Positions 21,420 through 42,690 of a stretch of 51,374 bases of DNA are shown in pieces. The DNA comes from a phage. The notes beneath the pieces were generated by a model, which worked only from the letters and a program-made list of their open reading frames with translations, was not told where the DNA came from and searched no databases. Position numbers and translations under genes: made by a program. Location: sequence record NC_105433.1. The stretch is one strand, 5' to 3'. Positions within the stretch are counted from its first letter, which is position 1; every line of letters starts with the position of its first letter.

Positions 21420-21615
21420 AATAGGTATATACATATAAAATCAATAGTTTATTTATTTATGTATGTGTATTTGTTTTTTCTTGTTATCTGTGTTTCTTGT
21501 GGTTTTGGTTGTTTGTGGTGATTTTTCTTTCTGAGTATCTGTATGTGCCATCATTCATGTGTATGTATATAATCCGGCGTATCTGAGAGAACAAGGGAAC
21601 AAGAAAAATAACACA
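21420..21615 (+). repeat. Noncoding block A, homologous to block B at 42480..42690
   Basis: Ordered sub-blocks: atttatttat AT-rich run, G/T-rich run (tgtgtttcttgtggttttggttgtttgtggtg), then gtatgtatataatccggcg...aacaagaaaaataaca. Confidence 0.6.
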
Positions 21616-21695
21616 TATTAATCATTAACTTACGCGTAAAATTTGTTTTATTGCCATCTGAGAACGTTTAGAAAACAGAAAAAACAAAACAACTA

Positions 21696-21723
21696 TTGAC
21701 TAAATCAACCAAATGGCTACAAT
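21696..21723 (+). promoter_or_regulatory. Near-consensus sigma70 promoter (TTGACT, 16 nt, TACAAT) for the recombination operon
   Basis: ttgact at about 21696-21701 and tacaat at about 21718-21723; RBS gaggag; ATG at 21754. Confidence 0.65.
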
Positions 21724-21753
21724 GCACACACAAAGCAACGAGGAGCATTAAAG

Positions 21754-22809
21754 ATGAGTGATTTTAACGCCTATACTAGCGAAGAAATGAGCAATGAACT
21801 TTATCATGATCCTAACGCGTGGACGGCTGAATACGTCAGCGGTTCCAGCCTGGCGGAGATTTACAGCACTTGCCCTGCGTACTGGAAGTACAAGCCTCGC
21901 CAGGAAACCAAAGCACTTGTTTTCGGTACGCAGTCGCATACCAATTTTGAAAGCAAGGAGTTATTCGAAAAAACATATCGCCGCGCACCGTCGCAGGATG
22001 ATTTTAAAGATCTGATCACAAGTCAAACGGCGTTGGCCTCAAAGCTGAAATCTTTTGGCCTGAAAGGTACAACTGGTAAGCAATACCCCGAATTGCTGGA
22101 AATGCTGTACAAGTGCGGTGAGGATCTCAATGTATGGTGGCTTATCGAAATGATGGCAGAATGCCAGGCCGCAGCGGACGGCGTGCAGTTAATCGACGCG
22201 AAAGATTATGATGCCTGTGTAGCGATGCGGCGCGTACTTGAGGCAATACCTGAGCATAATGCTTGCATGAATAGCCCAACCGCGCAGCGTGAAATGTCAA
22301 TATTCGGGATCATCAATGGCGTAAAAGTTAAAGTGCGCCTTGATCACGTTGACGTAAACAAGGATGTAAAGGCCACAATCATTAACGGTTACGACGAAAA
22401 AGGCCGACCGATTTATGAAGAAGTCATCTATCCAGAAGCTGTGATTATAACTGACTATAAAACAACGGTTAGCGCAAATCCGGTTGACTTCCAGCGTCTG
22501 GCTTACAATCACGGCTATTATCTCAAAATGGCTTTGCAACATGATTTATTCAAAAAGGCGTATCCAGACGAGGAAAGACCAGTAATTGTGAGATTGCTTG
22601 CTCAAGAGAAGAAAGAGCCTTACTTGCCGCTCGCATTCCGAATGAACATTGAGCAATTGAAGATCGGGCGTATCCAGTACATGAGCGTGATCAACAAGTT
22701 CAACGTTTGCCAACAGTTAGATGAATGGCCTTCGTATGCAAACGGACAACCAGAAATTGATCTTGATACTCCTGATTGGGTTCGCGCTCAATTCAGGCAG
22801 TATCTATAA
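21754..22809 (+). CDS. Recombination exonuclease (PD-(D/E)XK, RecB/Cas4-like, putative)
   Basis: 351 aa; IITDYKTT segment resembling nuclease motif III; first gene of an operon with Erf-like and SSB genes. Confidence 0.6.
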   Translation: MSDFNAYTSEEMSNELYHDPNAWTAEYVSGSSLAEIYSTCPAYWKYKPRQETKALVFGTQSHTNFESKELFEKTYRRAPSQDDFKDLITSQTALASKLKSFGLKGTTGKQYPELLEMLYKCGEDLNVWWLIEMMAECQAAADGVQLIDAKDYDACVAMRRVLEAIPEHNACMNSPTAQREMSIFGIINGVKVKVRLDHVDVNKDVKATIINGYDEKGRPIYEEVIYPEAVIITDYKTTVSANPVDFQRLAYNHGYYLKMALQHDLFKKAYPDEERPVIVRLLAQEKKEPYLPLAFRMNIEQLKIGRIQYMSVINKFNVCQQLDEWPSYANGQPEIDLDTPDWVRAQFRQYL

Positions 22810-22814
22810 CAAAC

Positions 22815-22862
22815 TAAACAAATAGCTAAACTTTTATAATGGTTGGTGATATAATTCGCCAA
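22815..22862 (+). promoter_or_regulatory. Degenerate box plus hairpin-enclosed TATAAT
   Basis: aaatagctaaactttt followed by tataat and a ggttgg...ccaacc stem whose loop contains a second tataat. Confidence 0.3.
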
Positions 22863-22884
22863 CCAGATAACAGGAGAATGAGAA

Positions 22885-23142
22885 ATGACAGACAAAGACA
22901 ATGCCACATTATTGCATTTAGAACGATTCATTGATCGAGTAACCATTGCAATGAAAGAATTTATTAAGCCGATGAACATTAAAGAGTCGGAAGAAATGAA
23001 GACTTACATCAAGGACGTGGTTGCATCCATTGACAACGTTATCCTTGTTGCAACGATGAGCAAGGGAAACAAAGAGCGCGAGAGGTTGGTTACTGAATCA
23101 ACAGAAGAATTTATTAAAATGCTTGAAAGCGAGAAGGAATAA
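22885..23142 (+). CDS. Hypothetical protein
   Basis: 85 aa; RBS caggag; between exonuclease and Erf-like genes. Confidence 0.5.
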   Translation: MTDKDNATLLHLERFIDRVTIAMKEFIKPMNIKESEEMKTYIKDVVASIDNVILVATMSKGNKERERLVTESTEEFIKMLESEKE

Positions 23143-23145
23143 GAA

Positions 23146-40898: not shown

Positions 40899-41162
40899 TT
40901 AGTCCAGGAATTCGATTTCACGCTCTCCAGTTAACGGATCTACAAGCCAGAATCCGAGCGGTTCGCCGTGAACACCGCCATAGAATCCAAGCGCTGTCAG
41001 ATCTTCACCTTTAACGAATACCAGGTTTCCGCTACGGCTTACGTGAGACACGTTAACGATAACCGGAAATGTGCGATCCTTAAATGCGGGCCGCAGGGCG
41101 TAACATCCGTTATTGAGCAAACGTGCTTTGCGCTTAACTGGAATAGGTGCATTAATTTTCAT
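40899..41162 (-). CDS. Hypothetical protein
   Basis: 87 aa; strong RBS aaggag; stop within the box. Confidence 0.5.
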   Translation of the reverse strand: MKINAPIPVKRKARLLNNGCYALRPAFKDRTFPVIVNVSHVSRSGNLVFVKGEDLTALGFYGGVHGEPLGFWLVDPLTGEREIEFLD

Positions 41163-41174
41163 GGTTATTACTCC

Positions 41175-41387
41175 TTATCGTAAAGATTTAAAGACGTATA
41201 GTTTATTGCGGTAACTATATATCCGCATTGTTATTTCTCGCAGTGCAATATATTCCTTCCTGTTTTCCGGCAGACTGGCGAGCAACAACAGGCAGTATTT
41301 ATAAGCGCGGTCAAGATTCCTTTCCGTGCCCCTGCAATATCCCTTGTTGCGCTTGGAGCGGTACAGCCATAACAATTTCTTGAACAT
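41175..41387 (-). CDS. Possible small basic protein (doubtful)
   Basis: About 70 aa from the internal Met of ORF 41175..41573; Lys/Arg/Tyr-rich and low complexity. Confidence 0.2.
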   Translation of the reverse strand: MFKKLLWLYRSKRNKGYCRGTERNLDRAYKYCLLLLASLPENRKEYIALREITMRIYSYRNKLYVFKSLR

Positions 41388-41388
41388 T

Positions 41389-41598
41389 TCAGATACGCCC
41401 ATACAGATCACAGACTTCGTTGATAAAACAGCGTTGAGACTCTTTATCATGCTTCTCAAACATCGCACGGCATTCGTAGCGGTGATTATGCACGATGACA
41501 ACAACCATATTTTCAGGCGCTGACGGGTGACGCGCGGAAGCGTCGCAGATTGAAACATCCATACCCATCTCATGTGCTTTCTTGATCACATCCAACAT
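41389..41598 (-). CDS. Hypothetical protein, paralogue of 41586..41852
   Basis: Frame of ORF 41389..41622; ATG at 41598 has RBS aggag; C-terminus CFINEVCDLYGRI matches DFINDVCLL of the upstream gene. Confidence 0.45.
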   Translation of the reverse strand: MLDVIKKAHEMGMDVSICDASARHPSAPENMVVVIVHNHRYECRAMFEKHDKESQRCFINEVCDLYGRI

Positions 41599-41852
41599 TT
41601 TTTCTTCTCCTGCAATAAGCAAACATCATTGATAAAATCAGCACGGCCCTTAATGTTGCTGATGTGGAACGTCTTTTCAGCGTACAGGCCATCACCTTCA
41701 ATCACGATCATTACGCGAGTCGGTTTATTCACGGGCGCACACGAAAAGAGTGGTCGCGCCGGAAGAAATTTAGTAGCCACATCCAGGTTAGCCCTGGCGG
41801 CCCTGCAAAATGCCTCCGCCAGATCCAAATCATTTTCGGTAATCACCGCCAT
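41586..41852 (-). CDS. Hypothetical protein
   Basis: 88 aa; ATGA overlap with the upstream gene. Confidence 0.45.
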   Translation of the reverse strand: MAVITENDLDLAEAFCRAARANLDVATKFLPARPLFSCAPVNKPTRVMIVIEGDGLYAEKTFHISNIKGRADFINDVCLLQEKKKCWM

Positions 41853-42124
41853 TACTTCTTAATCTCCTCACTGATAAATTTCAGCACCTGACGCAAGAAA
41901 ACCTCGTTGTTGATAGTCGCTGGCAATTCTTCCTTCACTTCTTGCGGCAGATAGATATTGCCGTGCCAGGTCAAGCAATCGTAGTTGATACGATAAGAGC
42001 AAAGCCACTCGCAATCGTTATCTGCTTCCCAAATGCAGAGTTGCAGAACATCGCCAAAATCTTCAACAGTCAGATCCAGACCGTGACGCTTAGCGAAATT
42101 GAAAGTGGTTTTGCTGATGTTCAT
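41852..42124 (-). CDS. Hypothetical protein, first gene of the leftward block
   Basis: 90 aa; Cys/Trp-containing; preceded by a box cassette. Confidence 0.5.
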   Translation of the reverse strand: MNISKTTFNFAKRHGLDLTVEDFGDVLQLCIWEADNDCEWLCSYRINYDCLTWHGNIYLPQEVKEELPATINNEVFLRQVLKFISEEIKK

Positions 42125-42204
42125 TGCTATCTCCTGAGCGGTTCGTTTCGATGTGTGTAATGTACCCGATCAGACGGCCTGAGTTTTAACAAAAAGTGCT
42201 ATTT
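42125..42204 (-). promoter_or_regulatory. Box-type promoter cassette for the leftward block
   Basis: Minus strand: aaatagcactttttgttaaaac followed by leader gggtacattacacacatcgaaacgaaccgctcaggag and ATG. Confidence 0.45.
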
Positions 42205-42479
42205 GACGGTTAGCGCCAGGATTGTGATCGAAATAATCAGAAGTAATCATTCGTAATCAAATCACGTCAAAATGATGATTGCCTTTGCAAATTTGATGAG
42301 AAAAGCAATCACGTTTAATCATTGGTTGCAGGGGAGATAGTGAAACCCTCCCCTCTTGCCTCACTTTTCCGCCTGGCTGTCAGTGGTTGTTGTCTTTTGT
42401 TCACCCCTGTTACCGATTTCAGGCGGCGTGTTTCCGCGCGGTTTTCCGGTGTAGCGAAAACGGAAAAAACAAAGAAAAT

Positions 42480-42690
42480 CCTCTATAATACATTGAAAAT
42501 AAAGATTATTTATTTATATATATCTATAATGTTTTCTTTTTGTTCTCACTGTTACAGTGCTTTTTGTTGGGTGTGGTGTGGTTGTGTGTTGGTATATATG
42601 GATAGTTGCGCGCGCGGCGGATTGCATATGTATATATACTTTTTCCGGCGGATTGCGTTAACAGCGTGAACAGAAAAATAACAGCCCTGA
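42480..42690 (+). repeat. Noncoding block B, homologous to block A at 21420..21615
   Basis: Ordered sub-blocks: attatttatttat AT-rich run, G/T-rich run (ttgggtgtggtgtggttgtgtgttgg), then gcatatgtatatatac...ccggcgg...aacagaaaaataaca. Confidence 0.6.

Follow-up and report, generated by a model that had tools for sequence, protein, structure and literature searches.

The 51,374-bp sequence NC_105433.1, called the window throughout and numbered from its first letter, is essentially the complete genome of a T1-like coliphage (family Drexlerviridae, subfamily Tempevirinae, genus Warwickvirus), and phage tonijn is about 99% identical to it in the regions tested. It carries two colinear noncoding modules of about 400 bp each, module A at 21326-21723 and module B at 42388-42785. 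The pair is real, conserved and apparently undescribed. As a kind of element it is a familiar one: an origin that combines repeats with an unwinding element, or else a control region lying upstream. Going by their sequence, we favour, tentatively, the view that the modules are DNA-unwinding, origin-like assembly sites coupled to divergent early promoters, that is, paralogous cis-acting elements that would work as duplex DNA and not as a transcript. They are candidates, the best so far, for the replication origins of the Drexlerviridae. T1 belongs to the seven classical T phages, and the Drexlerviridae are among the commonest coliphages isolated, as well as a notorious laboratory contaminant. 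The origin of replication was identified neither in TLS (PMC11447400) nor in SU57 (PMC7718038), and no description of paired modules, T1-family origins or transcriptomes was found in the literature searched, which did not cover the original T1 and Rtp genome papers. A conserved cis pair with origin-like anatomy offers a concrete and cheaply testable origin candidate for the T1 family.

An earlier reading of the letters alone (the original prediction) had described here two homologous blocks of about 200 bp upstream of two rightward promoters, and had suggested pairwise alignment and comparison with relatives as checks, a purely compositional likeness being what would undo it. Compared by blastn within the window, the two blocks match over 300 nt with 67.7% identity (E 1.6e-23), and with wider flanks over 382 nt with 66.8% identity (E 1.6e-29), spanning 21327-21686 in A and 42387-42757 in B; searching the whole window with each block gave no third copy. 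In a MAFFT alignment the colinear identity runs rightward through the sigma70 promoters. The Smith-Waterman score of A against B is 68, compared with 23 ± 4 for shuffled controls (z 11-13) and at most 18 for every other window of the genome. In these controls, block B was permuted inside consecutive bins of 10, 15 or 25 nt, which keeps the order of the AT-rich, GT-rich and A-rich segments. A compositional artefact is thus ruled out (z about 12 with such local-composition shuffles), and because the local score stands so far above them, the similarity is true colinear homology. The named sub-blocks, the G/T runs among them, were indeed found in both blocks, in the same order and at the places given for them:

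21449-21460 (A) and 42509-42520 (B): AT-rich runs, tttatttattta and ttatttatttat
21562-21571 (A) and 42627-42636 (B): tatgtatata
21574-21579 (A) and 42645-42650 (B): ccggcg
21598-21613 (A) and 42669-42683 (B): aaca(a)gaaaaataaca

Both near-consensus rightward promoters were confirmed (TTGACT-16-TACAAT at 21696-21723, TTGACA-16-TATAAT at 42758-42785), and so were the leftward box motifs at about 21325 and 42201. The length had been underestimated: the homologous unit is really about 400 bp, as it reaches the leftward box promoter on one side and runs through the sigma70 promoter on the other. Spacer B is 692 bp (42125-42816), longer than the 500-600 bp given for the divergent control regions, and spacer A is 500 bp. 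Spacer A has a leftward cor-like gene cluster on one side and the rightward exonuclease VIII/annealing protein/SSB operon (start 21754) on the other. Spacer B separates two divergent small early-gene clusters, with ATGs at 42124 (leftward) and 42817 (rightward). Since the flanking genes diverge, no transcription should enter either spacer from outside.

From the box to the promoter, the modules share one order of elements: T-arm 1, a CGGCG(T/G)AAAT-type motif, A-arm 1, the core, T-arm 2 with the G+T run, a TA block with CCGGCG, A-arm 2, an IHF-like block, T-arm 3 and A-arm 3. T-arm 1 consists of three TGTT(A/C) repeats at a spacing of about 10-11 bp, and A-arm 1 is the same repeat in inverse orientation; each module thus holds oppositely oriented arrays of three such repeats, spaced by about 10 bp. 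The core is laid out as TATA(A/T)(T/A)ACAT..., followed by ATTTATTTAT and (TA)n, and may also be written (TA)n/ATTTATTT. T-arm 2 continues into a stretch of 60-70 nt that is nearly pure G and T on the top strand, and a second TATGTATATA block with CCGGCG lies downstream of it; the motif CCGGCG(T/G)AAAT is present in both modules. Next comes the conserved block AATCAnnAACTT(A/G)CG; module B has it as an exact IHF-consensus match, module A with a single mismatch. The elements of module A are the following:

21305-21328, minus strand: leftward 21-nt box promoter-like element AAGTAGCACTTTTTGCTAAAC, one of 17 copies in the genome, left bound of the module
21326-21354, plus strand: T-arm 1, three TGTT spaced by about 10-11 bp, CTTGTTATTTTTTGTTTTCCGGTGTTATC; all 25 Tempevirinae homologues keep TTTTGTT unchanged
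21363-21376, plus strand: first CGGCGTAAAT motif, which recurs at 21574-21583; conserved across the alignment
21393-21417, plus strand: A-arm 1, AACA repeats inverse to T-arm 1; conserved as AACAAAAAGAACAAA in relatives
21404-21469, no strand: core, candidate DNA-unwinding element, containing TATATACATA, TTTATTTATTTA and, at 21439, a match to the IHF consensus; the 60-mer and 100-mer of lowest stability in the window (z 4.9 and 4.8)
21470-21541, plus strand: T-arm 2 (triple TGTT, 21472-21494) passing into the G+T-only run; skew conserved and sequence variable in relatives
21560-21583, plus strand: TGTATGTATATAAT plus CCGGCGTATC, the second TA block and CGGCG motif; TATATA...CCGGCG(T/C)AAAT conserved in relatives
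21586-21614, plus strand: A-arm 2, GAACAAG GGAACAAG AAAAATAACAC, inverse of T-arm 2; GTGAACAATGGAACA conserved in relatives
21619-21634, plus strand: AATCAnnAACTTAC block, IHF-like with one mismatch; highly conserved in 25 homologues
21638-21695, plus strand: T-arm 3 ATTTGTTTTATT and A-arm 3 GAAAACAGAAAAAACAAAACAACTA, forming inverted repeat I8; TTTTGTT and AAACA..AAAAA.AACA conserved
21696-21723, plus strand: sigma70 promoter TTGACT-16-TACAAT of the exoVIII/annealing-protein/SSB operon; -35 and -10 near-invariant in relatives; equivalent to TLS P51

Those of module B are:

42181-42204, minus strand: leftward box promoter-like element AAATAGCACTTTTTGTTAAAAC at the left of the spacer; invariant in 9 relatives
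42388-42414, plus strand: T-arm 1 TGTTGTCTTTTGTTCACCCCTGTTACC, triple TGTT, direct repeat of T-arm 2 (D1); the A/B alignment starts here
42453-42479, plus strand: A-arm 1 GAAAACGGAAAAAACAAAGAAAAT, inverted repeat I6 with 42532-42547; AAC..AAAAAACA conserved
42481-42529, no strand: core CTCTATAATACATTGAAAATAAAGATTATTTATTTATATATATCTATAA, candidate DNA-unwinding element; most conserved segment, near-invariant in 10 B modules
42530-42597, plus strand: T-arm 2 (triple TGTT, 42530-42555) and G+T-only run; inverted repeat I1 with A-arm 2
42606-42656, plus strand: GC-rich insert, TATGTATATATAC, with two CGGCGGATTGC repeats; aligns with 21560-21583 of A
42657-42684, plus strand: A-arm 2 GTTAACAG CGTGAACAG AAAAATAACAG, triple AACAG, with a minus-strand triple TGTT at 42660; TAACAGCG.GAACAG conserved
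42689-42757, plus strand: IHF-consensus site at 42691 (AATCAACAACTTG), T-arm 3 (42707-42724) and UP-like A-arm 3 (42741-42757); I8; aligned to A
42758-42785, plus strand: consensus sigma70 promoter TTGACA-16-TATAAT (12/12) of the rightward early small-gene cluster, whose first gene starts at 42817; equivalent to TLS P01

The arms are linked by inverted repeats. In module A, I12 joins T-arm 1 to A-arm 1 (21330-21341 with 21401-21412, 92% complementary), I17 is a perfect 10-nt match of the 21560-21583 segment with 21426-21435, and I3, I11 and I18 connect A-arm 2 with 21462-21494. In module B, I1 covers 25 nt of T-arm 2 and 42659-42683 (80% complementary), and an exact 11-nt direct repeat, D10, stands at 42615 and 42646. 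Part of the stem-loop-rich segment that had been placed before block B belongs to the shared module, namely T-arm 1 at 42388-42414; the rest is B-specific.

Duplex stability and strand composition set the modules apart from the rest of the genome. By nearest-neighbour calculation, the two cores are its two least stable stretches at window sizes of 40, 60 and 100 bp (z 4.1-4.9; next region 3.3-3.6), core B providing the least stable 40-mer (42483-42522, z 4.5) and the second least stable 60-mer and 100-mer. The most G+T-skewed 60-mer of the genome lies in module A (21464-21523, 90% G+T, z 5.2), and the second most skewed in module B (42531-42590, 85% G+T, z 4.5). Of the six occurrences of the array TGTT-N5-8-TGTT-N5-8-TGTT in the genome, five are inside the modules, and two of the six IHF-consensus matches of the genome fall there as well (0.1 expected). 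TATATA, the signature of alternating TA, is 183-fold enriched in the modules relative to flanking coding DNA (19 phage spacers).

The comparison with relatives gave a consistent picture. Spacers of type A were collected with the exonuclease gene as anchor (43 loci from IMG/VR), and spacers of type B from DNA matches, anchoring on the gene downstream of B having given only 2 loci. The 25 Tempevirinae A spacers have 62-94% identity to the window and can be aligned along the entire module; their elements come in the same order, and the TTTTGTT, TGTT, AAC, CGGCG, IHF-like and promoter positions are invariant among them. The same arrangement was seen in 10 B spacers (Warwick-, Hanriver-, Changchun- and Tlsvirus), where the core cTATAATACATTGAAAATAAAGATTATTTATTTATATATATCTATA is the most conserved part; core B is about 82% identical even in Salmonella and Citrobacter Drexlerviridae. 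The G+T run behaves otherwise, its skew being retained in relatives and its sequence not.

In T1 (Tunavirinae), the two least stable stretches of the genome again lie in the equivalent spacers (203-310 and 29997-30110, z 4.8-5.9), and the same holds for Rtp (Braunvirinae; 202-320 and 28084-28190, z 4.3-5.2). Exceptionally low duplex stability, the mark of a DNA-unwinding element, is thus a property of the cores in three phages of three subfamilies: they are the least stable stretches of 40-100 bp in the window, T1 and Rtp. The two spacers of T1 share a homologous core (91 nt, 76% identity), and so do those of Rtp (161 nt, 76% identity, E 1e-31), whereas orthologous spacers barely align across subfamilies. 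Cores within one genome are therefore more alike than their orthologues in another subfamily, which means concerted evolution at the subfamily scale. The repeats also differ between lineages. In T1, TGTAACA (6 of 6 genome copies) and GTGTAACA (4 of 4) are confined to the two spacers, some copies overlapping the promoters or sitting inside them. In Rtp, the repeat CCGCGGA (TTCCGCGGAAA, which contains a palindrome) has all 6 of its genome copies in the two spacers (27918-28259, and 45750-46219 + 1-545), which also hold GTTAC(G/A)C repeats; other lineages have TGTAATC or TGTCAC. A motif related to the Rtp repeat, TTTCCG(C/G)G, is found in the modules of the window at 21341, 42431, 42442 and 42641. 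Repeats that are specific to a lineage and common to both copies lead us to expect a co-evolving phage DNA-binding factor rather than a host factor.

The phage encodes a replication gene set of its own. The gene of a Cro/YdaS-like helix-turn-helix (HTH) protein (27722-28198) overlaps that of a Zn-ribbon primase (26737-27744), whose match to the long primase profile phrog_510 covers the N-terminal half of that profile. There is a DEAD-type helicase, with a VRR-NUC nuclease, and a DUF3987 'helicase' at 35540-37120 on the minus strand. An AlphaFold (AF2) model of the latter, built from a 31-sequence alignment with a mean predicted local confidence (pLDDT) of 90, matches MCM2-7 and archaeal MCM AAA+ helicases (Foldseek E 6e-6 to 1e-3) and ends in a C-terminal winged-helix domain, which on its own matches generic winged helices only (best E 0.04), among them that of MCM4. 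Judged by this model, the helicase is MCM-like. A phage with its own initiation-type machinery (primase, HTH protein, helicase) and without a known origin counts in favour of an origin-like role of the modules. So do the extreme melting minima seen across the family, the skewed run beside them, repeat arrays in inverted orientation, repeats peculiar to each lineage, the concerted evolution and the non-transcribed location. Of the functions suggested originally, the origin-like one, with its putative part in replication, gains most: in the window, T1 and Rtp alike the cores are the pair of stretches with the lowest duplex stability, repeat arrays flank them, and for the family no origin is known.

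From this anatomy we infer the following sequence of events. Divergent early transcription from the flanking promoters would drive negative supercoiling into the spacer. A phage-encoded DNA-binding protein would occupy the oppositely oriented TGTT(A/C) arrays and the CGGCG motifs on either side of the core; the candidates are the Cro/YdaS-like HTH protein encoded beside the primase and the winged-helix C-terminus of the MCM-like DUF3987 helicase, and IHF may assist. The (TA)n/ATTTATTT core would then melt in vivo, and the adjoining G+T-only strand would offer the phage helicase and primase a single-stranded site on which to land. Both modules may be origins, or one may be an origin and the other a further binding site for the initiator, on the model of SPP1 oriL/oriR. 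Of the three early sigma70 promoters, two would thus have a module physically joined to their upstream region, and the outermost A-rich arms of the modules probably double as UP-like elements. If the origin-like view is right, the MCM-like helicase of a bacterial virus becomes linked to a defined loading site.

Several observations weigh against this view. The modules are found only attached to early promoters, with the homology continuing through the sigma70 promoters, and a transcriptional role explains the duplication equally well. The repeats have a low information content, TGTT density alone is not unique to the modules, and since the Tempevirinae consensus is short and T-rich, its enrichment is partly compositional. 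The G+T run is not extreme in T1, and no genome-specific excess of A-B similarity was seen within Tempevirinae. The hallmarks of a host-type, DnaA-dependent oriC are missing too: the modules have no exact DnaA box and one with a single mismatch (1.5 expected), and no GATC in 21320-21735 and 42380-42795 where about 5 were expected, in a genome with about 300 such sites and encoded methyltransferases. Finally, an origin often, though not universally, lies beside its initiator gene, and many iteron origins lie in or next to it; here the modules (21.3-21.7 and 42.4-42.8 kb) are 5-6 kb away from the primase/HTH (26.7-28.2 kb) and helicase (35.5-37.1 kb) genes. Membership in the P4 system, considered below, is not supported either.

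The pac-headful phage SPP1 has two origins 12 kb apart, both bound by one initiator; fork stalling at the second is believed to set off recombination-dependent concatemer synthesis (PMC3485210), which the exonuclease, annealing protein and SSB of the phage serve (PMC3485210). As with SPP1 oriL and oriR, we find two related modules, here 21 kb apart, and A is directly upstream of an exonuclease/annealase/SSB operon. The modules differ in lying in divergent promoter spacers, whereas SPP1 oriL is inside the initiator gene 38, and the helicase, to judge from its model, is MCM-like and not DnaB-like. The SPP1 repeats, or 'AB boxes', are unrelated in sequence to those of the modules. We also considered, as possible but doubtful, a fuller scheme in which the T1 family has a twin-origin system: transcription and a phage initiator would open the (TA)n element, the MCM-like helicase would be loaded on the G+T strand, and A might act like SPP1 oriR in the passage from theta replication to recombination-dependent concatemers.

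The satellite phage P4 offers a second parallel, as its ori and crr are two separated cis regions with the same short repeat in both orientations. We take its type I iteron octamer to be TGTTCACC, presumably bound by the winged-helix tail of the alpha primase-helicase. The TGTTCAC/GTGAACA of the arms resembles this octamer, the analogy being functional only; TGTTCAC stands in module B at 42398 (plus) and 42666 (minus) and in the arms of relatives, with 10 copies in the genome in total, and module A has TGTTATC/CTTGTTC. The repeat consensus is looser here and lineage-dependent, unlike that of P4, and the primase is a protein distinct from the helicase. Searching PDB by sequence and by profile gave no match to an alpha-type origin-binding domain, the P4 alpha domain was outside the top 50 structural matches of the helicase C-terminus, and the full-length helicase is modelled as MCM-like.

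In lambda ori and in iteron plasmids, iterons adjoin an AT-rich, strand-asymmetric unwinding region, and nearby transcription activates the origin. The modules likewise have a repeat array beside an AT-rich strand-asymmetric region, with IHF-like sites, and a dependence on the neighbouring promoters is plausible; they differ in that the arrays flank the core on both sides, inverted, and that the element is intergenic and duplicated. T4 oriF and oriG and the primary origin of T7 combine a promoter with a downstream unwinding element and are primed by an R-loop or transcript. A -10-like TATAAT at the edge of the unwinding element, followed by a G-rich non-template run, would suit R-loop priming here too; unlike in T4 and T7, the consensus promoter scan recognised no -35 and no phage-specific promoter motif at the core.

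A real possibility, and the main alternative to origin-like sites, is that the regions are purely transcriptional, a duplicated far-upstream cassette that regulates two of the early sigma70 promoters together with the box promoters opposite them. The arms would then be UP-like elements or sites for an activator or repressor (an HTH regulator, IHF or another factor), the core would give flexibility or looping, and early transcription would be boosted or shut off. The duplication includes the promoters, as this explanation accounts for: homology covers them together with the A-rich arm next to each -35, and the leftward box, which shares TTTTTGTT with the arms, directly borders T-arm 1. In TLS, the sigma70-like promoters that its authors could place between genes number only three (PMC11447400): P01, P57 and P51, which precedes the exonuclease. 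P01 and P51 are the counterparts of the module B and A promoters, so that two of the group's three known sigma70 promoters have a module. A conserved IHF-like site lies about 65-75 bp upstream of the -35 in both modules, the T1 repeat copies overlap or lie within promoters, and the phage encodes a Cro-like HTH 'transcriptional regulator'.

The original suggestion of UP-like regions holds only for the A-rich 20-25 bp that abut each -35 (21671-21695 and 42741-42757), as in UP elements of the T5, T7 A1 and rrnB P1 type. There, A-arm 3 joins the -35 as GAAAACAGAAAAAACAAAACAACTA-TTGACT in A and TGAATACAACAAAAACA-TTGACA in B, an A/T-rich sequence conserved in relatives, contiguous with the -35 and covering -40 to -60, as expected of an UP element; in a module of about 400 bp, this accounts for about 25 bp. 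What remains of it lies 60-370 bp upstream, outside UP-element reach: UP elements occupy about -40 to -60, and the module extends to about -370 and holds the melting minimum and the repeat arrays. The conserved core itself, 220-290 bp upstream of the -35, is beyond the range of UP elements and of typical sigma70 activators. Phased A-tract curvature does not place the modules among the top regions, and since the helical phasing of A-tracts is unexceptional, classic upstream curvature is not the signal. A transcriptional cassette has no need for the melting minimum of the genome together with an extreme strand-skewed run, and the third early promoter spacer does without a module. This spacer (28199-28285), between the HTH/primase operon and the DEAD helicase, showed no homology to A or B by blastn within the window; it contains the third least stable 100-bp region (28214-28313, z 3.6) and a leftward promoter-like site, TTAAAA-16-TATAAT, which is probably the counterpart of TLS P57. 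Origin-like and transcriptional roles are not exclusive, since promoter-activated origins are common in phages. Should the modules be far-upstream control regions instead, they would define the regulatory architecture of the immediate-early promoters of the family.

It is improbable that the modules are DNA-structural or recombination elements, that is, entry or strand-invasion sites for the phage exonuclease/annealing system or for host RecA, or fork-stalling sites that trigger the concatemeric switch. Module A stands immediately upstream of the exoVIII/Erf/SSB operon, the cores are easily melted, and GT-rich single strands are preferred RecA substrates; moreover SPP1 oriR is an initiator-bound fork barrier that feeds recombination (PMC3485210). 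However, Chi-like sites are absent from the modules even with one mismatch allowed, the T1 run, as said, lacks an extreme G+T content, and we found no sequence feature that favours recombination specifically over initiation.

A small RNA or structured leader in each block, or an R-loop primer RNA started from the conserved TATAAT of the core, is very unlikely. It could draw on the TATAAT-like hexamer at 42484-42489, which B modules retain at the left edge of their core, and on the long-range inverted repeat of T-rich and A-rich arms in both blocks, as well as on duplex energies (self -22.5 against cross -20.3 kcal/mol, permutation p 0.02), a weak signal driven by few B modules. The hexamer has no -35 partner, and no consensus promoter match is conserved in both blocks, the sole internal one (10/12) being at 21545-21573 in A. 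Terminators are absent from A and represented in B by one weak consensus match with a 5-bp stem, so that neither module holds a promoter-terminator pair. Rfam returned no match for the modules, minimum-free-energy z-scores are only -0.5 to -1.1 on either strand, and RNAalifold found no consensus pair in 19 homologues. The long-range stem of T-arm 2 with A-arm 2 is 69.8% paired, compared with 60-71% when the partner is slid by 1-3 columns; since it pairs no better than these controls, the arms are inverse copies of a repeat and not a conserved helix. With neither a conserved open reading frame (ORF), an Rfam match, a terminator unit (beyond the weak one in B) nor an RNA structure, the small RNA genes first suggested find no support.

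Still less probable is that the shared module is a packaging (pac) recognition region: the T1 and Rtp records begin inside B spacers, as do those of several other relatives and, from the position of P01 (523-549), that of TLS, and the SU57 terminal repeat starts in such an untranslated region (PMC7718038), but T1 position 1 falls in a B-specific array to the left of the shared module, module A is without this array, and if pac had another copy at a distance of 21 kb, two packaging series would result, and these are not reported, so that the module does not behave as a single site at the start of the terminal redundancy.

That array, at 42230-42325 (AATCA/AATCAC/GATCAC/TGATG/TGATT), lies between the leftward box and the shared module, and is itself the likely site of pac, or of binding by the small terminase. 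Position 1 of T1, where its 2.8-kb terminal repeat starts, falls in the equivalent array, and CF1 and Stevie have GATCAC and GATTTGATT arrays at the equivalent position. Next to it is a conserved hairpin-like inverted repeat, also B-specific (42329-42357, CAGGGGAG-ATAGTGAAACC-CTCCCCTC), in a region that no known promoter transcribes. Its loop motif ATAG(A/T)GAAA is kept and its arms vary by lineage (GCAAGTGA...TCACACCTTGC in Tlsvirus).

The 21-nt box, AATAGCACTTTTTGTTAAAAC, has 17 copies in the genome, all co-oriented with the transcription of downstream genes. Examples are:

2152, 26649, 30700 and 43539, plus strand: box sites
42201, 40897 and 21325, minus strand: box sites

The direct repeats of TLS, aaATAGCACnnnTTGnTAAAA, are this same element, and the TLS authors count their function among the questions still to be answered (PMC11447400). 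Cumulative GC skew tracks gene orientation in this genome and is uninformative on replication.

Protein-coding modules could be ruled out. The ORFs that cross the modules are not conserved, their strand, position and length varying among relatives, and this includes the annotated 115-aa ORF at 42322-42669 (JLBYU26_28). Several deposited genomes nevertheless have hypothetical proteins annotated across the noncoding modules; those of WaterSpirit, MikeNSara and NorthRox have three or four tiny coding sequences there, not conserved. Such annotations in several GenBank records look spurious and should be removed. A further observation concerns 18 UNVERIFIED GenBank records of 'Campylobacter phage' (MG065637-MG065687; E6, C4, A139 and others), which are assigned to Hanrivervirus and have a module of the coliphage type: contamination by coliphages, or a wrong host label, is the probable explanation.

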